Counted from the stretch's first letter, positions 11,402 to 42,293 are shown. The stretch: DNA of 51,429 bases from an uncultured bacterium (GCA_964648415.1 CAZYOC010000002.1:1-51429), one strand, 5' to 3'. Numbers and translations: made by a program. Notes: a model not told the origin generated them from the sequence alone.

Positions 11402-11424
11402 GAGTCGCTTCATGCGATTGTTAG

Positions 11425-20884: not shown

Positions 20885-20892
20885 AGCGGGCG

Positions 20893-21762: not shown

Positions 21763-21782
21763 CTCTTCCCTACCTTTCTGCC

Positions 21783-23894
21783 GTGGATACCCAGTCATCA
21801 CAGTCACCCGCACCGGACCAACCATCGCGCACGGCACGCCGCAGACGGCGTCCGCGCATACCTTTTCGTATCCGTATCGGCCTGCCCGCTGCTGTCACTT
21901 TAGCCGCTCTTGTGATTCGAGGCCTCTACCTGTTGCTGGCCGGGGACCTGCCAACGTTTCTCAGCCCGGGCGTCGATGCTGAAATGTACCGCGCCTGGGC
22001 GGAACGCATTCTCTCGGGTGTCCCCCAGGGCGAACCCTTCTTCCGCGGACCGCTGTATCCCTACCTGATCGCAACACTGGGTCGTGTCTTCTTTGGAGAT
22101 ACGTTCTGGACCATACGTGTGTTCCAGATTCTCGTATCCGCTATAGCCGCCGGCGCGCTCGCATCGCTGGCCTTCCGGTGGTACAGTTACACCGCCGGCT
22201 GGATCGCGGGGCTGGGCTGGGCCTTCTACGGCCTGTCGATCTATTTTGACGCCGAAGGCCTGATCACCTCCCTGTTCACCAGCGGGCTGATATTACTGCT
22301 CCTCTGGATAGACCTCTACCAGCGTAAAGCGCGGATACACTGGATCATTCTCGCTGCGATCACACTGGGCTGCATGACCCTGCTGCGGGCCAATGCGTTG
22401 ATTCTATGGCCTGTGCTGCTGTGGGCGCTGGCGTCACGTCCCGGAGCGAAGCGACGCAAACGAACCCATCCCACCTGGGTCGCCCCTCTGCTGGCGGGGA
22501 CCATCCTGATCGCCATGGCCGTACCGATCACCAGTTACAACCACAGTCGAGGCGGCGGCTGGACCATCAGCACCCAGGGCGGGATCAATCTCTACCTTGG
22601 CAACAATCCCGCCGCAGATGGCGCCTATGCCGTCGATCCGGAGTTCGGCCCCGCATGGACCCGCGCCCAGATTGAATATAGAGCCGCCCAAGCCGTCGGA
22701 AAAACACGGATCGCAAAAACAGAGACCGACAGCTACTACACCAATCAGGCGATGCGGTATTGGCTCGACAACACATGGGACGCGATCAAGCTGACGCTGA
22801 AAAAGGCTTTGATTTTCTTCAACTTCCGCGAGCTGGGAAACAACCGGCCGCTGCAACCGTTCCTCATGGAAGTGTCGCCCCTGTTCGCGTTTCTGGCCTT
22901 GATCGGATTCCCATTGATCGCCATCTTCGGGTTGCCTTTCATCCCGAAATCCTGGCAATACGTGGCGAATTCACGGCCTGCTATTGTCATGTTCGGGCTG
23001 TATTTCCTCAGCCTGTTGGCCTTCTTCATCAACGCGCGCTATCGTTTCCCGATCACACCTATCCTGGTCCTGTTGGCGGCGGGCTCCCTGGCCGATTTCA
23101 GCAACTGGCTGAAACGGGTAAAAGAGGAAAAGCAAAAGGCTTGGTTCCAGATTGGCGTACGAGTCGCAGTCGCTTTGCTCGTCCTGCTGCCCAAACCCGT
23201 CTCTACCGCCGGAATGGATGAAAACTGGCGTTTCCATCAAGCCGCGGCACGCCTGCGTCTCACTGGTCTGATCGGCGAGAACCAACCGCCCAGCGAGGCT
23301 ATTGCTTACGAAAAAAGACGAACCTGGACAATGGAAGCGCAGGAGATCCTGCTTGAACTGACCGAAAAGGGATCCCAGCGGGAAAATGTACACCTGAACC
23401 TGGGCCTGACCTATATGGCGCAGAATAAACCCGCACGCGCCAAGCAGCAGTTTGAAATGGAAATCGCCGCCAATGCCAACCGAAGCGGCGCCACCAATAA
23501 CCTGGGGGTGATCGCGCAACGCCGGGGCCAACTGGACAAGGCTGAAGCCCTCTATCGACGGTCGCTGTCTCTGGACCCAACCAATCCCGACGCGATCCAT
23601 AACCTGGCGGCCCTGCTGAACGAGACCGCACGAGTCGGCTTTGATTCGGTTCAAGTGCAACAAACCTATGAGCGGCTTCAGGAAGCTGTACGGCTCGTTC
23701 CCAACAATCCCACCTACCTCATCAACCTGGCGATGGTGGAAGTCTATCTTGGCGAGCATCACAACGCGATCAATCACCTCTATCGCGTGTTGCAACTAAA
23801 CCCGAATTCCACAACCGCACGCCAGATGCTGAGGGATCTGGGAGTTGTTCTCGATTCATCTGAGCCATCTCGATCCAGTAACGCTGAAGAGTGA
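21783..23894 (+). CDS. Polytopic GT-C-type glycosyltransferase (GT39/ArnT-like) with a C-terminal TPR domain
   Basis: 703 aa. A basic N-terminus is followed by about 10 or more hydrophobic segments. The C-terminal TPRs read 'NLGLTYMAQNKPARAKQQFEMEI' and 'NNLGVIAQRRGQLDKAEALYRRSLSLDPTNPDAIHNLAAL'. The start codon (GTG at 21783) is uncertain. Confidence 0.7.
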   Translation: MDTQSSQSPAPDQPSRTARRRRRPRIPFRIRIGLPAAVTLAALVIRGLYLLLAGDLPTFLSPGVDAEMYRAWAERILSGVPQGEPFFRGPLYPYLIATLGRVFFGDTFWTIRVFQILVSAIAAGALASLAFRWYSYTAGWIAGLGWAFYGLSIYFDAEGLITSLFTSGLILLLLWIDLYQRKARIHWIILAAITLGCMTLLRANALILWPVLLWALASRPGAKRRKRTHPTWVAPLLAGTILIAMAVPITSYNHSRGGGWTISTQGGINLYLGNNPAADGAYAVDPEFGPAWTRAQIEYRAAQAVGKTRIAKTETDSYYTNQAMRYWLDNTWDAIKLTLKKALIFFNFRELGNNRPLQPFLMEVSPLFAFLALIGFPLIAIFGLPFIPKSWQYVANSRPAIVMFGLYFLSLLAFFINARYRFPITPILVLLAAGSLADFSNWLKRVKEEKQKAWFQIGVRVAVALLVLLPKPVSTAGMDENWRFHQAAARLRLTGLIGENQPPSEAIAYEKRRTWTMEAQEILLELTEKGSQRENVHLNLGLTYMAQNKPARAKQQFEMEIAANANRSGATNNLGVIAQRRGQLDKAEALYRRSLSLDPTNPDAIHNLAALLNETARVGFDSVQVQQTYERLQEAVRLVPNNPTYLINLAMVEVYLGEHHNAINHLYRVLQLNPNSTTARQMLRDLGVVLDSSEPSRSSNAEE

Positions 23895-25656
23895 ACCTCG
23901 CCCCCTGCACCGATTCATCAACCGGTTCGAGCCGTACGCGATGGAAAAGTGTGTCTGCGTCATCACCACTACGTTCCCCTCCCGGCAAAACAGGGAAAAA
24001 TGCTTCCAATTCATCAAAGGGTTGTGGAAGTCCACTCAAACAGGAAATGACCTCGCTCCCCTGTTGAGCAACCAGCCTGGATGTAGCAAAAAGATACAGT
24101 ATGTCCGATTCATTCGACTGGACAGGGATGCGGACAATGCTTCCGTACAAAAGTTCCGGTCCCAGATCTTCCGGGAAATAGTACCGCCATACGACGACAG
24201 GCGTGTCTTTGGCCACCCTCGCTACCTGGTTTCGCAGCGAAGCGTTTTCACTCCTCACCTCATACTGCTTCAGCAGGCCATTGACCTGCTGCGCCCCGCC
24301 CACGAGCAGTAAAACGATCAGTATCCCACGTACCCATCTCTTCTCTCGAAGCATCCATGCGACACCTCCAGTCATCGCAGCAAGGAGCGGAGCAAGCAGG
24401 AACCGCGGCCCGAAATGGATGCCCTGCTCGACCGGGTTTGTGGCAAGCGACAGCAAGATGATTCCGCCCAGAATCCATTTGATTTTCTTCTCTACGTCAT
24501 GGACCGACGGCGCCGCAAACCAGGCCGCCGCAAGAGGAGCCGTCGCAAGCCAGCCACTGGAGGCGGCCAACTCACTGAGCGGAACGGGTGTCGCGAACCG
24601 GTACACCGCAATTCCCAACAATCCAACCGCCGCCAGACCGCCACCGGCAACTCGAGCAACGCTCCTTCCCCGTGCCAGGAAAAACAGACCCACCAGCACC
24701 AGGCCGGAGTACAACCAGCTCAAGCCAGGCAACGCCCCCAGCCCAAGCTGGCTCGCCGCATTGGCAACCCTCGCCAGGAACGTAATCTCAAAAAACTGAA
24801 CATTTTGACTGATATGGGGAAAGAGAACCAAGCCTTCAGCACCAGCTCCATACATCGTGAAATTCACTATTAGAAGCGCCGATCCCGCTGTCAACAACCC
24901 CAGCAGATACCACCCCTTTCCCCGCACCATCACCAAAACACCGAGCGCCCAGATCAGCCCTTCCGTACGCAACCCGATCGCCACAGCAGCGAGCACCCCC
25001 GCAGCGAGCGCAAACCAGCGGGCTTGATGCACGGAGTACGCCTTGATGACCGGTGCAATCGCAAATCCCAGCGAAGCCAACGCCAGCGCGCCGTACAGAC
25101 CGTGCTCCCATATGGCGAACGTGTAGAAGAGCAAGGGCGTCGTGAACAGGACAGCCAGCGGAACCACTGTTTCAGCAAACGCTGCAAGTTGCTTCGCAGG
25201 AGCGACGGCGCCTCGCTGCTGCGGGCCGTAAAGCAGGCCATACAACCACGCAACAACAACCGCACATAACCAGCCGCCCAGAATGGACCACAGCCGGATC
25301 GCCTCCACACTCGCCCAGACCGCGTACATGACGCTGCCGAGCAGCAGAAACAGCGGGCTGTAAACCGCCACCGTCCGCTGTCCGATATGGAACGAGAACG
25401 GTTCGCTGTAGGGCGTGAAGAAGGCGTGTGTTCGCTGATCGACTGCAAACGGCGGGTTGAAGGGTAAACTGTAGTTGAAGCCCTGCTGCTCGATCGCGGC
25501 TGCGGCGAGGGTCTTCACGCCGGCGTCCACTCCCCACAACCCGCCACGTGGCCCCACCCCGTAAACCAGCGCACAGAGCACTGCCAACAAGCCCAGAAAA
25601 AAGGCAACCCGACGGATGCGGGTTGCCTTGAAAGATTGTCGCAGGGTCGTACTCAT
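23770..25656 (-). CDS. Polytopic integral membrane protein (possible GT-C-like), last gene of the surface-system operon
   Basis: 628 aa with many hydrophobic helices over ~450 aa, then a soluble C-terminal ~170 aa. It starts 6 nt after the upstream gene. I do not recognise the family with confidence. Confidence 0.65.
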   Translation of the reverse strand: MSTTLRQSFKATRIRRVAFFLGLLAVLCALVYGVGPRGGLWGVDAGVKTLAAAAIEQQGFNYSLPFNPPFAVDQRTHAFFTPYSEPFSFHIGQRTVAVYSPLFLLLGSVMYAVWASVEAIRLWSILGGWLCAVVVAWLYGLLYGPQQRGAVAPAKQLAAFAETVVPLAVLFTTPLLFYTFAIWEHGLYGALALASLGFAIAPVIKAYSVHQARWFALAAGVLAAVAIGLRTEGLIWALGVLVMVRGKGWYLLGLLTAGSALLIVNFTMYGAGAEGLVLFPHISQNVQFFEITFLARVANAASQLGLGALPGLSWLYSGLVLVGLFFLARGRSVARVAGGGLAAVGLLGIAVYRFATPVPLSELAASSGWLATAPLAAAWFAAPSVHDVEKKIKWILGGIILLSLATNPVEQGIHFGPRFLLAPLLAAMTGGVAWMLREKRWVRGILIVLLLVGGAQQVNGLLKQYEVRSENASLRNQVARVAKDTPVVVWRYYFPEDLGPELLYGSIVRIPVQSNESDILYLFATSRLVAQQGSEVISCLSGLPQPFDELEAFFPVLPGGERSGDDADTLFHRVRLEPVDESVQGARFTLQRYWIEMAQMNREQLPDPSASGVRLWNSGLVATRDRGD

Positions 25657-25662
25657 GGGACG

Positions 25663-27627
25663 CTATTGCGTCAGGATCCAGGTGATCATGTACGCATAGG
25701 CGTCGAGCACACTTTCGCGGTCCATGAAGAAGTACGAGAACGTGGACAGCGCTGAGCGGGAGCGAGGATTGCGAATCTCGCAAGGAGCCAGGTGGAACTC
25801 GGAAAGCGGATCAAACTTGTAGCTGACCGCGAGGGAATCGCCGGGCAACCATTCCTGCCCCTCTGAATGGGTGATGAAGATGTAGTTCCCCACCACACCG
25901 ACGACTTCGCCCTGCCAGTTCGAATACCCCTGCTCGGACAGGGTGATGTTTTCCACTTTGCTGACAGAGTCGGGATAGATGCTGTCATCGTAGAAGTCAT
26001 CTTCATCCGGATCAACTCGCACAAAGCAATCCACCGACCGTGGGGCCTGGAAGGGCAGATTGTCGGAGCGAACCACTTCGCCAGCTTCGTTTTCAACCTC
26101 TCCGACATAGGTTGCGGTGAAGGAATCGAAGTACTGGGTGGCGACTGCTTCATCCCGGCGCAGAATCCGCCCGGCTCCCGTTTCACCGTAATTCTGAGGA
26201 TTGTCGTAGTACCGAATCGAATCGGGATCATCCGGCGACGGTACGCCATAGTAGTTTTGCTTTTTCGTGCTGTCGACGAAACTCAAGGCCGGGAAGTAGC
26301 TGAGCGCATTCTCCGTCCCGATGAATTCCGCTCTGGCGAGTGTCGCCCCGCGCACCTGGGTATCCGAAATACCGTCGGAGCCGAAGAAATCAGTCATCAA
26401 AATGAGGTCAAGATTCTCCAGGCCGGGCACATCGGCGCCGTTCGGAATCTTGTAGCTCAAACAACGTCCCTGGTACCATATGTTACCGCCGACCTCCAGA
26501 TAGTCAACGAGGATCTTGTTACGGCGAATGGGGTACATACCGGTCAGAAGGTTGCTCCTTACTTGATCAGCGGCAATGAGCACCATCTTGTATTGATGGA
26601 TCAGGGAGTACGGAGGAACCATACTCTGCCAATCCGTCAGCTCGTCCACGACCCAGAAGTGAACTTCCAGATCCTGCAAGACACTTTCCATTCCCGCCTG
26701 CGGAGGAGCAGTCGTACGAAGATCCTCGACCAGATCGTGGTAGTATGTTACCAACGTGTCTGCTTTCGGGAACGCGGCAGGAACATTGCCGTTGGGGGCT
26801 TCAATGACAAACAGCACATCATGCAGGAAGGTCGGCCGGATCACATTGAACCGGATCCTGGCCGGCGCCGGTGACGGTTCAAATGCGTCATCACGACACC
26901 ACACCGAAAGGGTATAGAAACCGGTTTCAAGGTCCGCAAAGGTAGCGCTCTGTTCATCGACCCAGTCGCTCACCCCGATGGTGTCCTCGGCGCCCTTGAC
27001 GATCACCATCTTGTACTGCAACGGAATCTTGTGCAAGGCGCGATCGTCGGGATCGCTGGACTGCCACTGGAACTGATGCCCGGGCCAGTACTGCGAAGTA
27101 TACTCGGCGGAGAAGAGGGTGTCTTCAACAATAACCGATTGCCCCATTGCGTCATCGCTCGCGCCCGCCAGACCAATCTGCGGGATGTTCGGCGGCTGGT
27201 TTGAACGGTAAAATGTCCTGTAGACCACGGAATCGCTCACAGCGTCCTCGTTGTCAAAACAGCGGATATAGACAACGTGCTCGGTCTGCTCACCTTCTTC
27301 CGTCAGCAGGTAGATGGTCGCTTCGGTGGCAATCGTATCGGTCCAGGCTTCATCCGGAATCTGATCGTAAAAAGCGATCGGATTCTGAATGGCGGCAGAA
27401 TCGGTAACGTCCGCAAAGGAGTAGTACTCAACAAACCCGTCCGGATCACTACCGGCCCAGTACACCGTGGGCGCGTAATTAAACTCGCTGCTGTCGAGGG
27501 GCACGGTGACGAAGCGAACCGACGGCGGAATGTTCACATCCTGGTCGCCTTCCATGTTCCCGCACCCGGCCAGCATCAGGGCCAGCAGCAGCATTCCCGC
27601 TATGGGATAGAGGTTTCTCAATCGCAT
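25663..27627 (-). CDS. Large surface lipoprotein with two repeated modules
   Basis: 654 aa with lipobox 'LMLAGCG'. Two modules begin 'PPSV...YWAGSDPDG' and 'PPNI...FQWQSSDPDD'. I recognise no enzymatic motif. Confidence 0.7.
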   Translation of the reverse strand: MRLRNLYPIAGMLLLALMLAGCGNMEGDQDVNIPPSVRFVTVPLDSSEFNYAPTVYWAGSDPDGFVEYYSFADVTDSAAIQNPIAFYDQIPDEAWTDTIATEATIYLLTEEGEQTEHVVYIRCFDNEDAVSDSVVYRTFYRSNQPPNIPQIGLAGASDDAMGQSVIVEDTLFSAEYTSQYWPGHQFQWQSSDPDDRALHKIPLQYKMVIVKGAEDTIGVSDWVDEQSATFADLETGFYTLSVWCRDDAFEPSPAPARIRFNVIRPTFLHDVLFVIEAPNGNVPAAFPKADTLVTYYHDLVEDLRTTAPPQAGMESVLQDLEVHFWVVDELTDWQSMVPPYSLIHQYKMVLIAADQVRSNLLTGMYPIRRNKILVDYLEVGGNIWYQGRCLSYKIPNGADVPGLENLDLILMTDFFGSDGISDTQVRGATLARAEFIGTENALSYFPALSFVDSTKKQNYYGVPSPDDPDSIRYYDNPQNYGETGAGRILRRDEAVATQYFDSFTATYVGEVENEAGEVVRSDNLPFQAPRSVDCFVRVDPDEDDFYDDSIYPDSVSKVENITLSEQGYSNWQGEVVGVVGNYIFITHSEGQEWLPGDSLAVSYKFDPLSEFHLAPCEIRNPRSRSALSTFSYFFMDRESVLDAYAYMITWILTQ

Positions 27628-27642
27628 GAGCCTGTTCCTCTC

Positions 27643-28275
27643 TTATCCGCGAATGATCGGCATCAGCCGGTCAATTTCAGCAATCAGCGCATCGCGACCA
27701 GCCTGGGTCGTCAAATCCGCATCAAAGGTCGAATTCAATTCCTGAACCTGGACCAGCGCGGCGTCAAAATCACCTGTCAACAGGTAGGAAGAAGCCATCA
27801 TCCAGATCAGATCCAGTTCGTTCACACCTTCCATGTGATCGAACCGGTAGCCGGGATTGGTTGTCAGGACCTCATCAATCAGCGAGACGCAGGTGGTGAA
27901 ATGCTCACCGTCATAGGCGACAAAGGCCTGGCCCACTTTGATGTCCAGCCGGTCGCCGGGACGGTCTTCATCCAAACCGTCGTTCCAGTACTCTGTCGCC
28001 GCTTCCAGGTCGCCCAGCATATAGCTGGCCCACCCGGCGCCGGTGAAGGCGTCCGTGCTGGTCGCCCCCGCCGCAATCGACCGGTCAAACAGCTCCAGCG
28101 CGGCTTCCCAGTTCAGCAGCTCGAATTCGTCCCAGCCATCCCGCGCCAATTCCACAGGATTGCCGGACACCCCATCATCGTCTTCGTCGTCATCGCCGCA
28201 GCCGATCACGCCGATGCTGAGAACCAGCAACGCCGCAAGCAACCCACTCAGCCATGTCCACTTTTTCACTGTCAT
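27643..28275 (-). CDS. Small TPR-like lipoprotein
   Basis: 210 aa with lipobox 'IGVIGCG', followed by an Asp-rich linker and helical repeats ('GWASYMLGDLEAATEYWNDGL'). Confidence 0.65.
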   Translation of the reverse strand: MTVKKWTWLSGLLAALLVLSIGVIGCGDDDEDDDGVSGNPVELARDGWDEFELLNWEAALELFDRSIAAGATSTDAFTGAGWASYMLGDLEAATEYWNDGLDEDRPGDRLDIKVGQAFVAYDGEHFTTCVSLIDEVLTTNPGYRFDHMEGVNELDLIWMMASSYLLTGDFDAALVQVQELNSTFDADLTTQAGRDALIAEIDRLMPIIRG

Positions 28276-28285
28276 GTCCTCGCTC

Positions 28286-31200
28286 CTACCGCATCAGGAC
28301 CAATTTGCGAGTTTCAACCAGCCTGGCGCCGTTGGACGGCGTCACGATCAGCCGGTAGAAGTACACCCCACTGGCCAGTTCCGCACCGGCCTGGTTGCGT
28401 CCGTCCCACATCACGCTGTGGCGGCCGGACGCGTACCAGCTCCGCTCCACCGTGGCTACGAGCTGCCCAAGCAGATTGTACACCTGCAACTGCACATCGG
28501 CGGCGTTCGCCAACTCAAACGGGATCGTGGTCGTGGGGTTGAACGGGTTCGGATAGTTGGCGCCCAGACGGGTCCGGGTCGGCAACAACTGCGACTGCCG
28601 GCTGCCCAGCGAATTGATCACGGCGAACACGCCCGGGCCGTCCGTGCCGGCGTGCACGGTCTTGTTCGTCACGTCCACGTAGCTGTCGAGCTTACGCCAC
28701 TCTTTATCCGCCAGACGCCAGATCGCCAGGCCGTCTTCGCGACCGGGCAATACCGCGTATTCATCGTACGGCAGCACAATTTCGCCGTCCGCGGCCCACT
28801 GAGTCTTCACGCTTCGCACTTCCCAACGTGCGCCGGCAGAGGCTGACATGGGAACTTCGTCCGGCAGCGAACCACCCAGATCCGGTTCCGCCATCAGCAT
28901 CAATTCGGAGGTCGCCGCGTTCGGAGGAAGCTCCAGGCTTGCACCCGAAGGATCGGAAAGCAGACCGCCAACCCCCGGCTTGAACACCGTTACAGCCATC
29001 GTCGTCCGGTACATGTACTCGCCACTGGAGGCTTTCACTTCAATGAAGTTCGACTCGTCCGTCGTGTATTGCGCGCGGTACATGCCGCTGCCGGATGACA
29101 CCTCCGTCAAGGCAAGTTCATCTGTGCCTTGATACGACGTCACCTCCAGGGTCGGCATGCCCAGACCGCTTTCCAATGTGCTGACCACGATGTAGAGGGT
29201 ACGTGCGTTCACCAGGTTCGGCAGGAAGCGAATCCGAAGCGGGGCGGCGGAATCCCAGTAGCCTGCGCCGGGGCCGCCGTACAACCCGATGTCCCCAGTC
29301 TCAGTCCCCTTGCTCGGCGGGAAGCTGTAGTCTTCGTACTGCACCGCCGGATTACCGCCGTCGATCAGGGGATTGTCCCCGGCAGCAGTCCCGGTCAGGA
29401 CAAAGTCGACGGTATCCTGGAAAACCACAGCCGGGTCGGCGTCGAACACATGCTGCGCATCGTTCGTGGAATCCTCCAGCACCGAATAGAAGAACTCAGC
29501 ACCGCCGTTATCGCCGAAGGATACAGCATTGGCGCCATGACCATGAACCACGCTGTTGCGGACAATGGGATTTGAGCGGGCCACGGCGTACAGGGCATGA
29601 CCGATCCCGTCGGTGGAAACATTGCCGTACAGGATGCTGTTCAACATCACTGGCGAACAATGGTCCACCAGATTCATCCCGCCGCCATACGTGGCGGTGT
29701 TGCCCTGAATCAAGCTGTTTGAGATGGTCGGATCGGAGTAGTTCTTCATGTAGATGCCGCCACCCGGGCCGTCGACTACGCTGTTGTACCGGACAATGTT
29801 GTTGTGGAATTCCGGTTGGCTGCCCCAAATCGTAATCGCGCCACCGAAATTCTCCGCGGAGTTGTTTTCGAAAGTACAATTGACGATTGTAGGCGCCGCT
29901 TGATACATCCACATCGCGCCGCCGTCCAGGGAACTGTAGCAATCCCGGATCGTCACATCGTAGAAGGTCGGGCTGCTGTTATAGACCGACACGCCGCCGC
30001 CATGCAAGGTAAAGTCGGGTTGGGTCTCTTCTTCGTCCTCACCCAGCGGCCGGCTGTGTCCTTTTTCAATGACCACGTGTTCGAGGCGCGACCACTGGCT
30101 GGCCGCGAAGAAACGGACCCCGCCATGATACGGCGTTGATCCCTGAGTCGTGAACAACACCTTGTTATCGGCAGTGCCCAGCACCTCAAGCGTACCTTCG
30201 ACACGAATCCAGTCGTCGGTTTCTTCAAACTGGATGGTGACACCATCGAGAATCGTCAGTTTTTCGGTAGTTTCAATCACCGTCGGACCGGCGCAAATGT
30301 ATAAGGTGTCGTCACCCATTCCCCACACCTCCGGGATACCGAACGCCGGATTCGGGATGGAGCCGGAGAAATACCGGCCGCCGGTAATTCCGCGTCCGGT
30401 CAGGTACAGATGAATGCTTTCCAGATCGGTAGGAATGGTAATTTGATCCTCATACATCTGGACTGAATCCGGATCGAACAGGATGCTCAGCACCAGGCTG
30501 TCTTCCGCGGGAACAGTCAGCGGGAAACTGGAAGGATCTGTGGAAAAAGCTGTGCCGCTGAATCCCGGTTCGGATACCGTCATGGGGTGATTACCGGCAT
30601 TGTAGAGCACAACATCGTTACGTTGAATATCGCTGTTCACATCGGCGAACAGGAAATCCAAAGTGTCACCGTTGGTCACATCCGTTTCCAGGATCGGACC
30701 TTCCAGAAATGCGGACAGCCGAATGTACTTGTGTTCCGCGCTGTTGCGGACGAAAATGCTGTCCCGCAGTTCTCCAACGACTCTGCTGGGGTCGCAGATG
30801 GCGAGATAGGTATACGTCTGGCCCGGCGGAATCGACCAGGGGCCGGTCTGATCCGGGTGCGGCGCAGCGCTGAAGAAACGGGTCGCTGTTTCCAGGTGCG
30901 GTGTGGTAATCAGTAGCGGCGTGGTGCCTGTGCTGCTGATCTGGAACTCCACCGCAATCGAATCACCAAGCGCAACCGTACCGTAGTCTACCGCATTGGT
31001 GCTGATGGAAATCCCCGGGTTAACCGGTGTTCCGCGCAGTTTGTAGGGAATGTCGCCGCCTTCCGTTTCCAGCAGCAACCACACATCCACCCGCACTGTA
31101 TCATTCGCATCCGGGTGATAATGCACGTCGAACGCATCCGAACTGTCCGGCGCAATTTCAAACTGGCGTCCCGATGTCGGGATGGTAAAACGATGCTCGA

Positions 31201-32473: not shown

Positions 32474-32557
32474 GCCACCTCGTCCTTTCAAGTTGCGGTC
32501 ATCCGCCGCAATCATTCTAGCTTACCCTGCCAAACTGAATATCGATCACGTTACAGT

Positions 32558-33589: not shown

Positions 33590-33602
33590 GGCGTCTTCCT
33601 TT

Positions 33603-36377
33603 CTAACGAATGATGACAAATTTACCCACATCGATGTGCCCCTTGTTCTCAGGCGTCATGTCCTCGACGCTGAACAGGTACAGTCCCGAAACAACCTGCT
33701 GCCGGTTTCGACTGTTCAGGTCCCACACCGCGGCGAAATCGCTGCTCCACGTCGAAATGCGGTTCCCATGAACATTGTGATCGATGATCTGCACCAGGTC
33801 GCCCGAAACGGTAAAGATCCGGATCAGACACTGGCGGGGCAGGTTGTAGAAGTAGATCCGACGATCGGTCTGCGGGAAGAAATCGCTCGTCCCGTCATCC
33901 CGGTTCTCCCAGCTCACGAAGGTGGTATCGTTCTCAAACAACACCTGCATATGCTGAGCTGTATAATCCTGATCCGCTCGGTACGGATTGGGAACCACGC
34001 CCGGCTTCTTCTTCGGGCTGCCGGAAGGCGCCATATACAGCATGTTCGCCGTCTTCGCCGTCTCCAACGGTTCGGTGCCCGAGAACGGGTCGCCGAAGTC
34101 GACGGCTGTTACACAGTAATACCGCGGAATCAGGGGGTTGACCTTGCCCAGGTTGAACTTGTAGGTGGAATCGTCAAACGCGATCCCCTCCAGCCCGACA
34201 TTCGGACCAACCGGCTGCAGGTAGCCCACCGTACCCACACCGTCAATGATGGTCGGGTCCAATGTGTCCGGGTTGGTCGTCTTGATCGGCACTTCCATCA
34301 GCGAATCCCGCTCGCTGTAATAGCCGTAGTCCTCCACGTCAAACTCGGCCAGGAAGCTGAACGTGTTTTCCAGGCCTTCGTTGGAGACATACACACGATA
34401 GGCTTCAAAGTCCTGCAACCGGCTGAACGGGTCAACATAGTTCGGGTCTTCTGACGGGAACTTGTGCCAGACAAGCGTCAACTCGTCCTCAGTCACTTCG
34501 TAACTCAGTACAGGAGTTTCCGGAGGCGGCGGTCCCTGGAAATCAGCGATGCCGTCACCCTGGTCGAACAATTCGTTGTTGTAAGTGTAGTCAACAAAGG
34601 TCGGCCGGAAGCCGTTCTGATCCTCCTCCGATTGCAACAACCCATCGGTTTCACCTTCGTCCGGCCCCTCATATACATAAGACCGGGTCACACCCCACAC
34701 ATCGGTAAACTCGACCGTTTTACCGATGGTATCGGAATAAACGCTGTCAACGCCGACATCCTCACCGAACCAGCCGTCGCCGTTCGAGTCGATCATCGGG
34801 TTGTCGTATACTTTCGCCGCCCAGTCCGCGTTGTACTGGAAATCGCTGAAGTCATACTTCGCCGGATCCAAATTGGTGTCGGTATCCTGCGGATTGTTGC
34901 GATCATGGAAGTTCTGACCGCCTACATAGGCGATGGTCATGGTGAACTTTTCGCCCGGATTCAAGCGGTAGACACGGTTGCCGGCTTCATCAATGAAGTC
35001 GAAGATGCCAAGCGGCCCCCAGGAGATCAGGTAACGAGTATCGTAGCCGTCCGCCAGGTCAGCGGGAACCTCGGGCGGGGTGTTGTCATCTTCACCCGGA
35101 ATGTACCAGTCGTACGATTCCGCAGGCGGTGCGTCGGGCGCCGCAAACCGGCTGCGGAATTCCTGCGGATGCTGCGTGATATAGTCCGGATCGTCCACGT
35201 AGACCTGGTCGTAGTCGAATTCCCGGTTGGACAGGACGAAGTATTTCCTCGCATCGTCTTCCGGCGTCCCCAACGAAGCTGTCCATGCCCCCGGGGATCC
35301 GTCATCCCGCCAGGCCGGACCGAAGTCCAGAGTCTCGTCCTGGTTGGAAATCCACCAGTTGAAGGATGTCCGCAGTTTCGGGTTGGGCGCTCGCACCACA
35401 CGCGCGCCGGTAACCCCCGGGCAGGAAAACGCGCCGGAGCTGACGTTCGGCGGACGACCGTCATTATCTGCAATGTACGCGGTATTGATCGTCAGGTTGA
35501 TCGATTCGCTGCCGCCGTCCGGCGTATACTCGAAGGACTTTTTGAACCCGCAGATATCGTCGGTGTGACGTTCCGATTCGCCGACCATACCCACGTCCGC
35601 GTCCACGTACAACCCGATATACAGGTTCTTCAGGAAGTTGTTGGCGATGTTCTCGATCTCGTAGTCGATCAGCAGGAAATCCTGAGCGTAGTTGTAGGAC
35701 CACGCGTAGGACTTCTGCGTCACCTTGATCCCGAGGGGGATATGCGCCCCGTCCTTCGCCGTGGAAATCAACCTTCCCGTGGGATCCAGGCGGCTGGTGT
35801 CCGTATAGGTCGCGATGAAATCCTGCTCGGAAACGGCTGAATCGCTGGAGATGAAATCACCCAGACAGTTGAACGCCTGCTGCCGGGTGGAGCGTTCCTC
35901 GATTCCGTGATCCGGTTCATAACCGGGGAAGAATTCCTGCCCCAGAAAATCGTTGTTCGCGGACGCCACCCATCCTTCCAGGCCATGGGAAACACGGGGA
36001 TACTCGAAGCCCTCTTCCTTGATCATGGCGCCGATCCACAGACCGCCCTGGAAGAGATACTGCACTCCGCTACCGCCGGGGAACTCCGCCTGCGGCGCCC
36101 ACTCGTTCGTACATGGATCGGGCAAAGATCCCGCACGAGTTTCGCCATCATTACCGAAGTACCCATAGTTGGTCACGTTCAACCAAAGCTTGCCGACATC
36201 ATGCACACGGTTTTCAATGTCCATGGTGTTCAGCATGGTGCGATACCCCGGATCCACCGGGCCGGAAGCACTCGCCGGCCCTTTCGCCGCTTGCACCGTG
36301 ACCGCCCCCGTGACTGCCAGTAACACCGCAATCACGATTTTCAGGGATGTCTTTTTCGCCAATCCGTTCATCCGCAC
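33603..36377 (-). CDS. Large secreted protein of unknown function with a T9SS-type C-terminal domain
   Basis: 924 aa with a signal peptide. The C-terminus reads 'VVPNPYRA...CLIRIFTVSGDLVQII...SGLYLFSVED...GKFVIIR' (CTD-like). Confidence 0.75.
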   Translation of the reverse strand: MRMNGLAKKTSLKIVIAVLLAVTGAVTVQAAKGPASASGPVDPGYRTMLNTMDIENRVHDVGKLWLNVTNYGYFGNDGETRAGSLPDPCTNEWAPQAEFPGGSGVQYLFQGGLWIGAMIKEEGFEYPRVSHGLEGWVASANNDFLGQEFFPGYEPDHGIEERSTRQQAFNCLGDFISSDSAVSEQDFIATYTDTSRLDPTGRLISTAKDGAHIPLGIKVTQKSYAWSYNYAQDFLLIDYEIENIANNFLKNLYIGLYVDADVGMVGESERHTDDICGFKKSFEYTPDGGSESINLTINTAYIADNDGRPPNVSSGAFSCPGVTGARVVRAPNPKLRTSFNWWISNQDETLDFGPAWRDDGSPGAWTASLGTPEDDARKYFVLSNREFDYDQVYVDDPDYITQHPQEFRSRFAAPDAPPAESYDWYIPGEDDNTPPEVPADLADGYDTRYLISWGPLGIFDFIDEAGNRVYRLNPGEKFTMTIAYVGGQNFHDRNNPQDTDTNLDPAKYDFSDFQYNADWAAKVYDNPMIDSNGDGWFGEDVGVDSVYSDTIGKTVEFTDVWGVTRSYVYEGPDEGETDGLLQSEEDQNGFRPTFVDYTYNNELFDQGDGIADFQGPPPPETPVLSYEVTEDELTLVWHKFPSEDPNYVDPFSRLQDFEAYRVYVSNEGLENTFSFLAEFDVEDYGYYSERDSLMEVPIKTTNPDTLDPTIIDGVGTVGYLQPVGPNVGLEGIAFDDSTYKFNLGKVNPLIPRYYCVTAVDFGDPFSGTEPLETAKTANMLYMAPSGSPKKKPGVVPNPYRADQDYTAQHMQVLFENDTTFVSWENRDDGTSDFFPQTDRRIYFYNLPRQCLIRIFTVSGDLVQIIDHNVHGNRISTWSSDFAAVWDLNSRNRQQVVSGLYLFSVEDMTPENKGHIDVGKFVIIR

Positions 36378-36423
36378 ACCGTCCGTCTATGTTGCCTCGT
36401 CGCTACGAGTTCATGTCTGTTTC

Positions 36424-38439
36424 TTACCAGGAGAACGAGCCACCGAAAGCGCCCAGGTCTGTGCCGTCGCTGCCGGCGTTCTTGCAGGGGCTGCCCGCCT
36501 GCAGGGAGAAGTCGCCCGCGGCAGGATCGGCAAACTGAGGATCGCCATCAATTTCATTGGCGATGTTTACCTGGCCGTATGTGGGAGTACCGCTGCCCGA
36601 GTAGAGATTCACATAGCTCAGCGTTCCCACGGACGAGATTTCCGCACGGGCGCCGTAATCACCATACTCAGCAATGATGCTGTTGGTGATGGTCGGCAGG
36701 CAGTTTCCCTTGATCCTCAGCCCGTTGTTCGTCGGCTGGTACACCGTCACATTGGCAATGGACGGGCTGCATCCCTGTTCGAGAACGATTCCGGAGACAG
36801 TGACGTTGTAGATCAGCACATTGCTGATAGTCGGCCGGCAATTCCGCCAGGCGTAGATGCCGTAACCCTGCATGTTGTAGATCTTCGCTCCCGTCAAGGA
36901 AGCATTGGCGTTCTTCGAGAAGTAGATGCCGTACATCCCTGCGTCATGCACCGTGATGTTCTCAAGCGTTGGCTGCGCGCCGTCATCGCAGAAGATACCG
37001 GTGTGGTACACGTTCCGAATTTCGATATTCTTCAACGTCGGGCTGCACGCGATGATGGAAATGGCGCCGACGCTGTAGGGATCGGCGATGTTGTCCACCG
37101 ACGCCCATTCAGCGATCACGTGCTCCATCCTGCTGTTGTTCGACGCTCCCTCGAAACGGATGTTTTTCCAGTCCACACGCGTGGGCTCTTCACTGTAGGA
37201 AGAGAACAGAATCGGCGCCGACGCGGTCCCGACAGCCTGAATCTCGCCTTCGATCACAAATTCAAAGGGCTCGGCGAACAAGACGGTCACGCCGGGATCA
37301 ATGATCAAGGTGTCGCCTTCCGCCACCAGGACATCACAGGTCACCAGGTAATGCTCATAATCTGTGGTGAGGTGCAACCGGTCACCGATCAGGGTGTGCG
37401 CCAGTTCGTTTTCCGCCTGGAAATGCGGGAAAACGCCCACATCCGGCGTGGTGCCGTCCGGATCCTCATCATACCCGCCGAACCCCGCGCCCTTGTCGAT
37501 CGCACCGCTACAGGGATGCAACGTGTAGTCGCCGTTCTCGATGTCTACAAAACCCGGATCGAGATGTACGTCACCCGAGACCAGCTCACCCAGTTTCAGC
37601 GGCAGGTAGTTCGGCGACTTGTTGTTGTAGATGTTGTTGTGGAAGAAGTTGTCCGAAATCCACTGGTTGTCGACATAGGCGTCGTACAGGCTGGGGGCGC
37701 GAATGCCGGCGTCCTCGTTCTGCACGATGATGTTGTTGACAATCACCGGCTGACCGTACACCGACTCACCGATATTGTAGTCCGGCTCAATCCGCAACCC
37801 GTTGAAGGCGTTCAGCGCCATGGTGTTAAACACGACTGTCGGGCTGGCGTCACCCAGGATCTGGATGCCGTCATAACCGGCGTTATCCACAATGGTGCGC
37901 CGAATGGTCGGAGAACAATTGTAGATCGTAATCGCGCCACGATACAGGACCCGGTCAATGAAGGGATCACCGTTGTCATCGTACGCGCGAGTGGTGTCCT
38001 GTACGATGTCATACTTGTTGGCCCAGGAGACCCAGCAGTATTCCATGATGGAAGCGTCATCTGCTTCCTCAAGAATCACACCGCCCCAATCGCCTTTCCG
38101 CTTCGGCGACTGCGCCGAAGTGAAATGGATGAGCTGAGTTTCAGTCCCGCGAGCATCGAGTTTGCCGTTGACTGTAAACGTGTAGCCATCCATACCACGG
38201 ATCACCACGCCCGGATCAATGATCAGAGTCTGGCCATCCGGGACGGTCACATCGCCGGTGAGCAGATACGGACTCGAACTGAGACTCAGGCTGCCGCTGA
38301 CATCGCCGCTGAGGGGTGTTCCGGACGGACCACCTCCCCCACCGGTGTCGTCGTCTTCATCGCCGCACCCGGTTATCAACCCCAGGGAAACCAATACAAT
38401 GACTGCACTGACAGTCAGGGATAAGAAACGCTTCAGCAC
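36424..38439 (-). CDS. Beta-helix (PbH1 repeat) surface lipoprotein, paralogous in module structure to the 1395-aa protein
   Basis: 671 aa with lipobox 'LITGCG'. Two modules each start with a cap motif: 'YLLTGDVTVPDGQTLIIDPGVVIRG...VNGKLDARGT' and 'YLVTCDVLVAEGDTLIIDPGVTVLF...IEGEIQAVGT'. Confidence 0.8.
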   Translation of the reverse strand: MLKRFLSLTVSAVIVLVSLGLITGCGDEDDDTGGGGGPSGTPLSGDVSGSLSLSSSPYLLTGDVTVPDGQTLIIDPGVVIRGMDGYTFTVNGKLDARGTETQLIHFTSAQSPKRKGDWGGVILEEADDASIMEYCWVSWANKYDIVQDTTRAYDDNGDPFIDRVLYRGAITIYNCSPTIRRTIVDNAGYDGIQILGDASPTVVFNTMALNAFNGLRIEPDYNIGESVYGQPVIVNNIIVQNEDAGIRAPSLYDAYVDNQWISDNFFHNNIYNNKSPNYLPLKLGELVSGDVHLDPGFVDIENGDYTLHPCSGAIDKGAGFGGYDEDPDGTTPDVGVFPHFQAENELAHTLIGDRLHLTTDYEHYLVTCDVLVAEGDTLIIDPGVTVLFAEPFEFVIEGEIQAVGTASAPILFSSYSEEPTRVDWKNIRFEGASNNSRMEHVIAEWASVDNIADPYSVGAISIIACSPTLKNIEIRNVYHTGIFCDDGAQPTLENITVHDAGMYGIYFSKNANASLTGAKIYNMQGYGIYAWRNCRPTISNVLIYNVTVSGIVLEQGCSPSIANVTVYQPTNNGLRIKGNCLPTITNSIIAEYGDYGARAEISSVGTLSYVNLYSGSGTPTYGQVNIANEIDGDPQFADPAAGDFSLQAGSPCKNAGSDGTDLGAFGGSFSW

Positions 38440-38453
38440 GTCAACCCCCTGTC

Positions 38454-41400
38454 TTAAAACTCAAGACCAACTTTTAGCAGAATCTGACGCCCGGACCCGA
38501 ACATACGGGGATTCGCGTCATATTCGTAACGGTTCAGGAACGGGTTGTAGTCCGGATTCAACGGATGAACCGCGTACACCGGGCTACCGGTCTGGGTGTA
38601 AATGCTGTTCCAGTTCTTCTTGTCGAACAGGTTGTTCACCGAGATGCCCCAGATCGTCTTCACGGTACCGATATCGAAGTACTTCTCGAAGCGGATGGTC
38701 GTGGTTTCTGTCCACGGCAGCCGTTCCGAGTTGTCGAGGATCAGTTCCGGCTCGATCCCTGTGGTGTATTCCGACGGCGTATACGGTCTGCCTGAACCGA
38801 ACTGCCAGTTGAAGCTCATCAACCAGTAGTCGGGCAGCCGCATACCGAACAGGAACGGGTGATCATCCTTGGCGAACATCAACGCCGCGTTGCAGGTGAT
38901 CTTGTGAGTCTCGTCCCAGTTCAGCGGATGTTCATCGTAGTTTACCGGAGTATTCAGGCTGCGACGCTCGAACTCGTCGTTGGCCCCGGAGGATTTGCCG
39001 TAGGCGTACGAGAAGTCGTAGTTGAAACTGGCTTGCCAATGCTTCGAGAACTTCTTGTCGATCTTCAGCTCCAGCCCGCGCGCGCGGCCATAATCCAGGT
39101 TGATGTACTTGGTAGCCGTGATCGGCCCTTCCGATTCGGTACGGGTCGAGATCATGTTGTACATGTCACGGTAGTAGCCGGCGATCTGGAAAGACAGATC
39201 CGTCGTGACCTGCGTGTGTACACCCAGCTCGTAGGTTACGGTCTTCTGGTACTTCAGGTTCGGGTTGCCCACGGTGCCGGCGTCCAGGTTGGTCGTGCTG
39301 GACTTGTAGTAGTAGAAGAACGGCGGCGCCTGGTAGAAGTGACCGTAGTTGAAGTACAGCTTGGATTCCGCCGTGATCGGGTGACTGATCCCCAGGCGGG
39401 GCGAGATCTTGTACTGTACATTATCGGCTTCTTCCGCGAAGGGTTCGCCGGCTTCCACGCGGCTTTTCATGTTATCTACAAGTTTCTGGTCCTGAACCAG
39501 GAAGTCCCCTCGCACACCTGCCTGAACGATCAACCCTTCGAATTCCATCTTGTCCTGCACGTACGCCGCGAACCGCCAGGGACGATACTCCCAGAAGTCG
39601 CGCACAGCGCCTCTGGTCGGCCAGGGTTCATTCGACCCCACCTCCGCCTCGCCAGTGTACTCTTCGTCGGGCGAAGAAATAAACTGGTTGTTCATGATGA
39701 AGTGTTTGCCCTCGAAACCGGCCTTGAACTCGTGGAATTCGTGGATCTGGCTCTGCCAGGAAAGGTCGAAGCTGTATTCTTCAGTCCTACGCTTCGCCCA
39801 CACCGCCGACGCGTCCCACAGGCCCGGATTCAGGAAAAGGTCCGAGCCGTTCCAAACCCCGTTGCCGTTGTAGTCCAGGAATTTCTCCTGGCCTTCATCA
39901 TAACGGCCATTCGGCACGTTGAACACCGGGTTCTCAGTATCATGCAACGTCCGGTTGGTCCAGGTGCTGTAGTTGGGATCGTATTGCAGGTAATCCGTAT
40001 ACACCCACTCCGTACCATGATTCTCGAGGTCGTAGGTATACCCGATCGGGAACGATTTGTCACCACTGAAGAACGTGAACAGCTCGTACTCGTCGAAGTA
40101 GTTGTTCGGCGGATCGTAGCGTCCGTTCAAGGTCGGCGTCATGAATTGTTGTTCGCCACCAAGCGACTCGAGACCCAGCACTGAACCAAGCTGGAAGCCG
40201 GCATTGGAGGAAGGCAGATCCCAGAAGGGCTCGCCTTCGTCCCACTTGCCGTTGTACACGCCGGTTACCGGGTCCGGAAGGTCAATAAACGGCTCGCCGG
40301 TATCGAAATACAGGTCACCGTCCCAGAACGGTTCCGGGTCGTCGTCCGGTACGCCACTCTGGGTCTGAACCAGATCGAGCTTATCCATCTCGCCGTTCGC
40401 GTTCTGGTCGTCGTACCCTTCCCCGTCGTCCTGTACGCCGTTGCCGTTGTAGTCGGTAAAGGGTTCGCCCTGCTGCCAGACACCATCGCCGTTCAGATCT
40501 TCAAACGGTTCCCAACGATCAAACACGCCGTTGTTGTTGGCGTCCTGGAAACGTTCGCCGTCCCAACGCCCGTTGGAGTTGATATCCTGCTCGGCCAACT
40601 GCGGCTCCGCCGGATCCCACACGCCGTTGCCATTCAAATCCTGGAAAGGATCCCAGGGATCCCAAACACCTATGTTGTTGGCGCCGGTTACAGGGTCGGC
40701 GCGGTCGGTCCACGGTTCGGCGTAGTCATACACGCCGTTACCGTTGATGTCGATCCAGTCTTCACCCGGATCCCACTGGCCGTTCATGTTGAGGTCTTCG
40801 TACCCCTCGCCGCCGCCGTCGTAAATCCGGTTGTTGTTGGAATCAAACCAGCCGTCGACGAAGTTGTTGCCATTTTCGTCCGCCGCCAATTCGTCGTACA
40901 CTTCGCTGTGGACAACGCCGTCGTTGTCGGCGTCCTGGTCCCACACTCCGTTGCGGTTCAAGTCCAGCGCCGCCACAGTCTGCTGGTTCTCCACTTCGTC
41001 CGATAAGGTGAATTCACCCGGATCTTTCTGGCCCGGAGTCGCGCTGGAGTTCAGCACCTGGTGACCCACGGTCACCTTGAAGAGGGTCTTGCTGCTGATC
41101 TGGTGGGTGTACTCCAGGTTCACCGAGCTGCGGCGGTCCTGAGCGCGTGGACGGTTCTGCAAGTTATGCTTGTAGTTCCACGCGAAACTGCCAGAATACG
41201 TCCCGTCGCCAAACCCAACCGGGAACAGGTCCCAGACACGGGCGCGAGTCGAATAATACATCGATGCTTTTCGGCCATTGCCCAACTCCAGGGCGAACTT
41301 CATCGAGGTCGACCAGTCGTTGTACTGGCGTTGCGGAACATTGAAACCGAAGCCGGCGTAGTCGTTTGCTTCGTAATCGACGCCCAACGGTGTGTAGGTA

Positions 41401-42293
41401 TCCGACACGTTGGCGTTGGCGGTCAGATAAAACGTGACAGGCCGCCCAAAGACCTTATCACTGAAAGGCAGCGGGCCGCCCAGCGAGGCGTTGGCACGGT
41501 CCTGGTTAAACCCGTTGTCATCGAACAGATGATCCTGGCTCCACTCGACGCTGCCGTTGTAACGGTCCGACTGGCCTTCCGGGGTAGTGATTTCCACAAC
41601 ACCCGACATCGCCTGTCCATATTCCGCCGACATACCGCCGGTCAGAATCTGGATTTCCTGAATGTTGACGGCATTCAGGTTGATGGGCAGCACCTCGCCG
41701 GTGATGGGGTCACGGCTGTCGATGCCGTCCACCACAAAACGGGCTTCCGAGTTACGGCCGCCTCGAATGTGGATCTTCCCCTCTTCGTCCAGCTTGAATC
41801 CCGGCATGGACTGTAACACTTCGGTCACGTCCTCCACCGCGCTGGTCTGAAGCGACTCACCCGTAATCCGCTGTACACTCGAGGTGGTGCCCAACTCGAC
41901 GGTCGGCTTCTCGTAGGTGATGGTTACATCCGGAAGCGCCATGGTGCTCGGCGTCAGCTTGAACTCCAGAGTCGTGGTGCGATCAATGTTGATCACCACT
42001 TCCTCGTAGGTCATCTCATGATACCCGACCGCAGAAGCCACCACATTGTACTTGCCGGGCTGGACGCCAATAATGAAGAAGTTGCCGTCCAGGTCCGTCG
42101 CCGCACCCCGGGACGTTCCTTCGAGAACCACGTTGGCGCCGATAATCGGTTCTTCCTTCTCGGCGTCGATCACGGTTCCCTTGATTTTACCGGTTTGGGC
42201 TGAAGCGGTCAGCGGCAGGAGCACACTCAAGCCAACCACAGCAAGCAACACCATCCACTCACGTACGCGCCAGGATCGCATACGCACCTCCAT
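38454..42293 (-). CDS. TonB-dependent outer-membrane receptor with an N-terminal CarboxypepD_reg domain and a large internal Ca-binding-type repeat insertion
   Basis: 1279 aa. After the signal peptide, 'GKIKGTVIDAEKEEPIIGANVVLEGTSRGAATDLDGNFFI' is a CarboxypepD_reg-like motif. The plug region reads 'IHIRGGRNSEARFVVDGI' and the C-terminal barrel ends 'KVGLEF'. Confidence 0.85.
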   Translation of the reverse strand: MEVRMRSWRVREWMVLLAVVGLSVLLPLTASAQTGKIKGTVIDAEKEEPIIGANVVLEGTSRGAATDLDGNFFIIGVQPGKYNVVASAVGYHEMTYEEVVINIDRTTTLEFKLTPSTMALPDVTITYEKPTVELGTTSSVQRITGESLQTSAVEDVTEVLQSMPGFKLDEEGKIHIRGGRNSEARFVVDGIDSRDPITGEVLPINLNAVNIQEIQILTGGMSAEYGQAMSGVVEITTPEGQSDRYNGSVEWSQDHLFDDNGFNQDRANASLGGPLPFSDKVFGRPVTFYLTANANVSDTYTPLGVDYEANDYAGFGFNVPQRQYNDWSTSMKFALELGNGRKASMYYSTRARVWDLFPVGFGDGTYSGSFAWNYKHNLQNRPRAQDRRSSVNLEYTHQISSKTLFKVTVGHQVLNSSATPGQKDPGEFTLSDEVENQQTVAALDLNRNGVWDQDADNDGVVHSEVYDELAADENGNNFVDGWFDSNNNRIYDGGGEGYEDLNMNGQWDPGEDWIDINGNGVYDYAEPWTDRADPVTGANNIGVWDPWDPFQDLNGNGVWDPAEPQLAEQDINSNGRWDGERFQDANNNGVFDRWEPFEDLNGDGVWQQGEPFTDYNGNGVQDDGEGYDDQNANGEMDKLDLVQTQSGVPDDDPEPFWDGDLYFDTGEPFIDLPDPVTGVYNGKWDEGEPFWDLPSSNAGFQLGSVLGLESLGGEQQFMTPTLNGRYDPPNNYFDEYELFTFFSGDKSFPIGYTYDLENHGTEWVYTDYLQYDPNYSTWTNRTLHDTENPVFNVPNGRYDEGQEKFLDYNGNGVWNGSDLFLNPGLWDASAVWAKRRTEEYSFDLSWQSQIHEFHEFKAGFEGKHFIMNNQFISSPDEEYTGEAEVGSNEPWPTRGAVRDFWEYRPWRFAAYVQDKMEFEGLIVQAGVRGDFLVQDQKLVDNMKSRVEAGEPFAEEADNVQYKISPRLGISHPITAESKLYFNYGHFYQAPPFFYYYKSSTTNLDAGTVGNPNLKYQKTVTYELGVHTQVTTDLSFQIAGYYRDMYNMISTRTESEGPITATKYINLDYGRARGLELKIDKKFSKHWQASFNYDFSYAYGKSSGANDEFERRSLNTPVNYDEHPLNWDETHKITCNAALMFAKDDHPFLFGMRLPDYWLMSFNWQFGSGRPYTPSEYTTGIEPELILDNSERLPWTETTTIRFEKYFDIGTVKTIWGISVNNLFDKKNWNSIYTQTGSPVYAVHPLNPDYNPFLNRYEYDANPRMFGSGRQILLKVGLEF
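40194..40976 (-). other. About 261-aa array of D-x-N-G-(N/D)-G-x-W-D / E-P-(F/W)-x-D repeats inside the TonB-dependent receptor
   Basis: aa ~440-700: 'DLNRNGVWDQDADNDG', 'DLNMNGQWDPGEDWIDINGNGVYDYAEPWTD', 'DLNGNGVWDPAEP', 'DINSNGRWDGERFQDANNNGVFDRWEPFEDLNGDGVWQQGEPFTDYNGNGVQDDGEGYDDQNANGEMD'. These are EF-hand / thrombospondin-type-3-like Ca-binding loops. Confidence 0.75.

Follow-up and report, generated by a model that had tools for sequence, protein, structure and literature searches.

A conserved gene cluster of little-known FCB bacteria that joins an Oar-type TonB-dependent transporter to a PorV/PorQ-family barrel and an unnamed secreted protein family

Cognate pairs of an outer-membrane barrel and a cargo protein are established in type IX secretion systems (T9SS) for PorQ-PorZ, PorV-PorU and PorP/SprF with type B cargo (PMC10202324, PMC12618676), and three orphan type B cargos of Flavobacterium johnsoniae share one shuttle (PMC12618676). 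Among TonB-dependent transporters, the Oar subclass is defined by a CarboxypepD_reg extension, a TonB box, a plug and a barrel, and Oar is needed for protein secretion (PMC6434023). The subject of this study is a 51-kb stretch of DNA (51,429 nucleotides; GCA_964648415.1, CAZYOC010000002.1:1-51429; hereafter the window) from an uncultured bacterium of the Fibrobacteres-Chlorobi-Bacteroidetes (FCB) type, in which eight adjoining genes, labelled g1 to g8 in transcription order, encode an Oar-type transporter (g1), an unnamed secreted protein (g3), a PorV/PorQ-family barrel (g4), beta-helix proteins (g2 and g5), further lipoproteins (g6 and g7) and a polytopic membrane protein (g8). To our knowledge, nearly all that is understood of T9SS biology and of TonB-dependent uptake comes from Bacteroidota. 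The cluster recurs in fixed order in several other FCB phyla, and our preferred reading, with a probability of roughly 0.45, is that it encodes a TonB-dependent surface capture and uptake complex in which g3 is held on a cognate barrel as PorZ is held on PorQ.

The comparison was made across 80 genome loci (L numbers) retrieved with the g3 alignment, the contents of which were read by tblastn of the window proteins; two pairs within the set are the same places (L001=L006, L005=L085), and the taxon labels of many of the metagenome-assembled genomes (MAGs) are vague. The cluster is present in 45 of these loci, and 33 of the 45 hold all of g1, g2, g3, g4 and g7, which form its core; the rest of the set consists of 16 clear orphan paralogues of g3 and 19 loci too short to judge. 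The distant contig L086 also has g1-g2-g3-g4-g7, and gene calls on metagenome contigs give the same order. Recurrence of one order in 45 of 80 loci from other organisms places the arrangement far beyond chance, and chance co-location was rejected on the strength of this synteny. Synteny outside this genome had been set beforehand by the original prediction as its own test, and it is present across several candidate phyla: named carriers include Ca. Electryonea and Ca. Hatepunaea (both Ca. Electryoneota), Calditrichaeota with Caldithrix among them, KSB1, LCP-89 and Zixibacteria. Loci L056, L057, L061, L062, L064, L067, L068, L071 and L075 carry g3, several of them with the whole cluster, and have FCB-type content; we suspect that the labels Alphaproteobacteria, Candidatus Puniceispirillum and Bacteroidia on those MAGs are wrong.

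The chromosomal position is shared as well as the order. In 22 of the 33 complete loci (L001, L002 and 20 more) the gene upstream encodes isocitrate dehydrogenase (IDH), at 59-90% identity and with a terminator between; this adjacency across distant lineages suggests that the chromosomal position is old and fixed, and speaks against a mobile locus. The cluster appears to have been inherited vertically across several little-known FCB phyla. Median identity to the window copy is 68% for IDH, 53% for g3, 53% for g4 (40 loci), 47.5% for g1 (38 loci), 33% for g7, 29% for g2 and 27% for g5, which separates a slow core of g1, g3 and g4 from a faster periphery of g2, g5 and g7. Since g3 evolves almost as slowly as IDH, it looks like a conserved core component rather than an ordinary cargo.

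Calls of open reading frames (ORFs) on the window agree with the eight minus-strand genes of the original prediction, between 23770 and 42293, and with the lengths it gave; the intergenic gaps, which it put at 6-84 nt, measure 14, 46, 10, 84, 10, 15 and 6 nt from g1 to g8 (Table 1). These values use Met starts for g4 at 33592 and for g5 at 32473; the full ORFs are 32558-33631 (357 aa) and 28286-32515 (1409 aa), respectively. Read from their sequences, each of the eight products has a Sec signal, a lipobox or transmembrane segments, with signal peptides visible in g1, g3, g4 and g5 and lipoboxes in g2, g6 and g7. The terminator said to precede the cluster was confirmed as an all-GC hairpin with a T-rich tail, directly past the IDH stop codon (stem region 42490-42463); it is the 5' limit of the unit, and the description of the cluster as a discrete unit is supported. 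The claim of an eight-gene operon stood only in part. The eight genes are contiguous, but a second terminator-like hairpin, a probable attenuator, sits 27 nt within the g8 ORF, and relatives have a hairpin of other sequence at the same g7/g8 place, the structure being kept within the first ~30 g8 codons (for example L001 20745-20784, L007 20684-20723, L013 20678-20717 and L073 6229-6272). With one fixed, pattern-based criterion applied to every junction, a terminator-like site was called 3' of g7 in 17 of 26 loci (65%) and at the other junctions in 0-8% (g1 1/38, g2 0/38, g3 3/42, g4 2/39, g5 0/26, g6 0/12). With a hairpin that is common past g7 and rare elsewhere, the main transcript is probably g1-g7, with g8 reached by read-through, so that the operon is probably seven genes plus one. 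Scans of the window for tRNA and Rfam families gave no match. A defence system was also considered and rejected, since a PADLOC scan of all eight proteins gave no match.

Table 1. Positions of the cluster genes, the flanking genes and the hairpins in the window.
Feature	Position	Strand	Length (aa)	Basis
g1, Oar-type TonB-dependent transporter	38454..42293	-	1279	PF13620/PF13715, PF07715, PF00593
g2, lipoprotein with two right-handed beta-helix modules and a DUF5123-like tail	36424..38439	-	671	PF13229, PF05048, PF17161
g3, secreted protein	33603..36377	-	924	no family model; homology and AlphaFold2 (AF2) model
g4, PorV/PorQ-family outer-membrane beta-barrel	32558..33592	-	344	NF033709
g5, predicted T9SS cargo	28286..32473	-	1395	PF13229 x2, PF22544, PF13860, TIGR04183
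g6, tetratricopeptide repeat (TPR) lipoprotein	27643..28275	-	210	lipobox VIGCGDDDEDDD, sub-threshold TPR matches
g7, lipoprotein	25663..27627	-	654	lipobox LAGC; AF2 model
g8, polytopic GT-C-type glycosyltransferase relative (predicted)	23770..25656	-	628	NF047440, hhalign
Convergent PMT_2 (GT-C) and TPR membrane protein	21783..23894	+	703	PF13231, many TPR families
Isocitrate dehydrogenase (IDH), upstream neighbour	42504-43826	-		ORF and domain calls
Terminator-like hairpin closing the IDH gene	42453..42490	-		12-bp all-GC stem, 4-nt loop, tail ATTTGTTTCA
Terminator-like hairpin and T-run, probable attenuator	25593..25629	-		11-bp stem, 7 GC pairs, then TTTTCT

The pairing of g3 with g4 is central to the preferred reading. 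The g4 product matches NF033709 at 193.8 bits, above the cutoff of 90 and over profile positions 1-326 of 326, and Pfam PorV at 34.8 bits. A narrower identity as PorQ, PorV2 or PorV proper was rejected, the scores being 78.7 against 220, 70.9 against 325 and 68.4 against 250 (equivalog cutoffs), and F. johnsoniae PorV (6h3i_F) was matched only at E 0.018. In most loci g4 directly follows g3, a cargo-then-barrel order that resembles porU-porV in many Bacteroidota; in the Zixibacteria/LCP-89 type it is placed after g5-g6. By analogy with such pairs, we propose that g4 is the cognate anchor of g3. A dedicated PorV-family barrel beside its cargo, as the original prediction had it, is in keeping with the PorQ-PorZ, PorV-PorU and PorP/SprF precedents (PMC10202324, PMC12618676). 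Its description of a PorV copy between two cargo genes is true of this lineage, but the conserved pairing is g3-g4: g5 and g6 are both missing from ten loci with a complete core, g6 occurs solely in loci with g5, and the two are an accessory, lineage-specific insert. The barrel between two cargos therefore describes the lineage and not the system.

The g3 product consists of an N-terminal beta-supersandwich of ~470 aa, a linker with a Ca-motif and poly-Pro, a middle beta-sandwich and a diverged, type-A-like C-terminal domain. It matches no model in Pfam or NCBIfam. The T9SS tail originally ascribed to it resembles the g5 tail (BLASTP E 3e-5) and aligned in hhalign with a set of type A tails (probability 90%, E 1.5e-6), although no tail model detected it, even at E<=10 in the Pfam scan; from these comparisons we read it as a probable, diverged T9SS type A tail. 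Its 996 homologues are mostly >50% identical and, where named, are all called 'hypothetical'. A g3 profile searched against 1.84 billion representatives retrieved 4154 clusters at 50% identity (E<=1e-3), most of which match just the N-terminal ~500 residues; the distant relatives bear only the name 'hypothetical protein', one of them from Candidatus Delongbacteria. Because five of the eight long distant relatives tested that share the N-domain end in Por_Secre_tail/FlgD_ig, this domain appears to be a widespread, unnamed T9SS cargo module.

The AF2 model of g3 is of moderate quality (mean predicted local distance difference test, pLDDT, 68), and Foldseek placed its N-domain near the mutarotase-like domains of GH116/GH94 enzymes and aldose epimerases at E 1e-5, with low template modelling (TM) scores, so that the supersandwich could be taken as a hint of carbohydrate binding. 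Identity as PorZ or PorU was rejected, there being no NCBIfam match and for PorZ (5m11) a Foldseek probability of only 0.30 at TM 0.10. Sequence searches of the PDB with g3, g5, g7 and g8 singly, and for g3 and g7 with family profiles as well, returned nothing useful. The core of the tail is the best-conserved segment of g3. Retention of an anchor could produce such a pattern, but the sign does not discriminate, because the g5 tail is likewise more conserved than the g5 body. In most of the genomes, one or two further paralogues of g3 lie away from the cluster (L003, L004, L014, L017, L018, L025 and others; in L004 a tandem pair lies at 7016-12739). These orphans share the conserved tail but have no PorV-like gene close by, and by analogy with the shared shuttle of F. 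johnsoniae they may use g4 as their barrel.

The transporter g1 comprises, in order, a signal peptide, the CarboxypepD_reg extension (residues 37-124 in Pfam), a TonB-box-like DVTITY (122-127), a plug, a barrel and a terminal Phe. Plug (PF07715, 47.5 bits) and barrel (22-strand TonB_dep_Rec family, PF00593, 90.5 bits) both exceed their Pfam cutoffs, and DVTITY is a putative TonB box through which TonB binding is predicted. Against the SusC/RagA model TIGR04056, g1 scored 104 bits, below the cutoff of 368, with the match confined to residues 36-245. In L074, a small stand-alone CarboxypepD_reg protein is encoded between IDH and g1 (2734-3408).

Beside the transporter stand the beta-helix proteins. 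The tail of g2 is weakly similar to that of the alginate lyase BcAlyPL6 (E 8.6e-4), outside any catalytic region. The g5 product combines two beta-helix modules, paralogous to those of g2, with Ig-like domains, and it ends in a canonical T9SS type A tail (TIGR04183, 30.4 bits, cutoff 23); it matches the PorZ and PorU models (NF052228/NF033707) in part of this C-terminal tail only. Annotation of g2 and g5 with hidden Markov models gave generic Beta_helix, NosD and DUF5123 matches only, next to a faint Pel9A-like signal and the match to a tail of polysaccharide lyase family 6 (PL6). These signals, together with a TonB-dependent transporter followed by surface lipoproteins, would suit an ordinary polysaccharide utilisation locus outside Bacteroidota, with g2 and g5 as unrecognised beta-helix lyases or hydrolases that feed g1. 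We consider this quite unlikely. As originally predicted, no SusD, glycoside hydrolase, lyase or peptidase family was found at E<=0.01 in any of the eight proteins (Pfam/NCBIfam), and the SusC model reaches the g1 N-terminus only. Polysaccharide utilisation loci are normally variable and accessory, whereas the g3-based retrieval gave one cluster per genome, vertically conserved across phyla, and the most conserved genes are g3 and g4 rather than the putative enzymes.

An adhesion or gliding apparatus would account for a large T9SS cargo with beta-helix and Ig-like domains, the beta-helix proteins being displayed adhesins and the barrels their anchors; gliding adhesins are known to have dedicated shuttle barrels (PMC10202324). 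Adhesion alone leaves a TonB-dependent transporter with plug and TonB box unexplained, many lineages do without the giant cargo g5, and no motor or Gld/Spr-type genes lie nearby, which makes this reading very improbable.

The lipoproteins g2, g6 and g7 carry an acidic run past the lipobox Cys (CGDEDDD, CGDDDEDDD and CGNMEGDQD, respectively; in g2 the lipobox is LITGC), which recalls the surface-export signal of Bacteroidota lipoproteins. In homologues the run is weaker for g2 (TEDD, TDTD) and largely absent from the g7 family consensus. The g7 gene is present in every cluster locus with enough DNA. Its product has no Pfam match. In its confident AF2 model (pLDDT 87), two Fn3-like domains stand beside an alpha/beta domain and a C-terminal part rich in beta structure, and Foldseek returned generic Fn3 pairs only.

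Domain calls confirmed seven entries of the original parts list, and the eighth, a 'polytopic membrane protein', is recast. The g8 product has 10 or more transmembrane segments and a conserved Asp in the first outer loop, and it matches NF047440 (LA_3751/LA_3752 putative glycosyltransferase) at E 5.7e-26 over profile positions 3-443 of 460, with 91 bits against a cutoff of 200. Profile comparison of the g8 family with the PMT_2 neighbours (hhalign probability 92%, E 7e-7) aligned the first-outer-loop Asp. We therefore read g8 as a GT-C-type glycosyltransferase relative, with predicted activity. It was found by jackhmmer in 31 loci (~29 distinct). The convergent PMT_2-TPR gene overlaps the g8 3' end by 125 nt, and a homologue is present in 17 of the 33 complete-core loci (where flanks reach), including loci without g8; one clade lacks g8 and keeps the PMT_2 gene.

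Several neighbours were recorded in their own right. In L064 (20414-22930, +) and L074 (19978-22908, +), both distant loci without g5 and g6, an S8 subtilase with CarboxypepD_reg follows the PMT_2 gene. In the window, an FGE-sulfatase-type protein and an M20 peptidase (19511-21837, -) adjoin the PMT_2 gene, and neither is kept beside the cluster in other loci. Further out lies an 853-aa patatin-like phospholipase fused to an Omp85-type barrel, a PlpD-like architecture (16857-19418, -). On the IDH side, a Mut7-C RNase with an N-terminal Ub-Mut7C domain (44341-45165, -) also stands beside IDH in the closest relative (L001 1196-2020).

Taken together, the cluster could specify a surface module built around the Oar-type transporter g1 in Electryoneota/Calditrichota-type FCB bacteria. 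Transcription would start past the IDH terminator and mostly stop at the hairpin after g7. The lipoproteins g2, g6 and g7 would reach the surface by the lipoprotein route, while g3 and g5 would be exported by a T9SS encoded elsewhere in the genome. In this respect the term 'self-contained', used in the original prediction, does not hold: neither a T9SS translocon or motor nor TonB-ExbBD was found among the window ORFs scanned, some ORFs having been left unscanned. On the cell, g4 would retain g3 through its uncleaved, diverged C-terminal domain, as PorQ does with PorZ. The beta-helix modules of g2 and g5 and the supersandwich of g3 might then bind an extracellular polymer and possibly cleave it; a glycan is the most likely ligand, both folds pointing to one. 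The products would be imported by g1 with TonB energy, the TonB box speaking for energised transport that is presumably inward. Finally, g8 and its PMT_2-TPR neighbour could glycosylate the components or their anchor on the periplasmic side. The role first suggested, polymer capture and uptake or adhesion, is likewise a proposal.

Several observations weigh against the capture and uptake complex. CAZy-type, peptidase and SusD families were not detected in the eight proteins, and the locus departs from typical polysaccharide utilisation loci in lacking a regulator, an inner-membrane transporter and any catabolic enzyme. The fold match of g3 is weak (TM about 0.2-0.4, on a model of pLDDT 68). 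One Oar-type transporter acts in protein export, so that by this analogy the direction of transport through g1 would not be fixed. The check for T9SS core genes (SprA/Sov, PorKLMN) was confined to the 51-kb window. The fixed place beside IDH and the high conservation of g1, g3 and g4 look like housekeeping envelope machinery, and this is what the main rival proposes: a module for biogenesis of the envelope or surface coat, in which g3-g4 would handle a glycoconjugate as a PorZ-PorQ-like pair, with the GT-C enzymes building or transferring its glycan, the beta-helix proteins making up the anchored coat and the TonB-type barrel working as a hub or exporter instead of a nutrient importer. Adjacency to IDH in 22 of 33 complete loci, medians of 47-53% for g1, g3 and g4 against 68% for IDH, the two GT-C genes conserved at the 3' end, the lack of catabolic genes, regulator and inner-membrane transporter, the conserved core of the g3 tail and the Oar precedent in protein secretion (PMC6434023) are all consistent with it. 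On the other hand, the PorZ and PorU models both fail to match g3 (for PorZ 5m11, probability 0.30 and TM 0.10), the cluster holds no sortase-like gene, conservation of the tail fails to discriminate since the g5 tail also outconserves its body, and g8 is missing from one clade and separated from g7 by a hairpin. We regard coat biogenesis as unlikely, and both the utilisation locus and the adhesion apparatus as less likely than it.

A broader formulation, in which a conserved core-genome machine of FCB phyla outside Bacteroidota uses T9SS and a dedicated PorV/PorQ-family barrel to assemble g3 onto a TonB-dependent transporter, seems to us somewhat doubtful. Such a machine, if real, would be a complex for transport or for a surface coat that the T9SS builds and that has a glycosylation step of its own, an assembly of a type undescribed for T9SS or TonB systems. 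The cluster brings T9SS and TonB-dependent uptake physically together in the genome, in five or more FCB lineages that are poorly known yet common in sediments and anoxic waters, and it defines a large unnamed secreted family, the 4154 clusters that share the g3 N-domain. The g3-g4 pair suggests a third kind of cognate barrel-cargo pair. Should the module prove to be a housekeeping envelope machine, it would show the use of T9SS outside Bacteroidota. Loci L036 and L041 are attributed to Caldithrix abyssi DSM 13497, so that the cultivated Caldithrix abyssi appears to carry the cluster; because it is cultivated, the surface proteome, the composition of the complex and its glycosylation are directly testable.

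The cluster is not described in the literature searched on these phyla and on T9SS: papers on the Caldithrix abyssi genome, on Electryoneota and on FCB phyla make no mention of the cluster, T9SS or its receptor, and a T9SS phylogeny paper covers no relevant taxa. Among the described systems, the PorQ-PorZ/PorV-PorU attachment complex of Porphyromonas gingivalis T9SS likewise consists of PorV/PorQ-family barrels and large secreted proteins, and the C-terminal beta-sandwich of g3 would similarly be kept as an anchor. Unlike PorZ and PorU, g3 has the predicted fold of a supersandwich rather than propellers or a peptidase, and g3-g4 is embedded in a TonB-receptor operon of a host outside Bacteroidota. 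The PorP/SprF shuttles that stand beside type B cargo in F. johnsoniae follow the same logic of a private barrel by its cargo, and since one shuttle there serves several orphan cargos, g4 might likewise serve the orphan g3 paralogues; g4, however, belongs to the PorV/PorQ family with no PorP/SprF match, and the g3 tail is type-A-like and not type B.

On the transport side, SusC/SusD utilisomes likewise have a TonB-dependent transporter with CarboxypepD_reg, followed by surface lipoproteins that include beta-helix/DUF5123 proteins. The present cluster differs in having no SusD, recognisable enzymes or regulator, in a g1 barrel that is not SusC-type, in partners some of which would arrive via T9SS, and in belonging to the core rather than the accessory genome. 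Oar of Myxococcus xanthus has a domain architecture identical to that of g1, a likeness of architecture alone. Like the GT-C glycosyltransferases (PMT_2/ArnT-like and LA_3751/LA_3752), g8 and its convergent neighbour are polytopic with a conserved Asp after the first transmembrane segment, but g8 scores below the cutoff of the LA_3751/LA_3752 family proper. Each part thus comes from a known superfamily, and their combination matches no described system.

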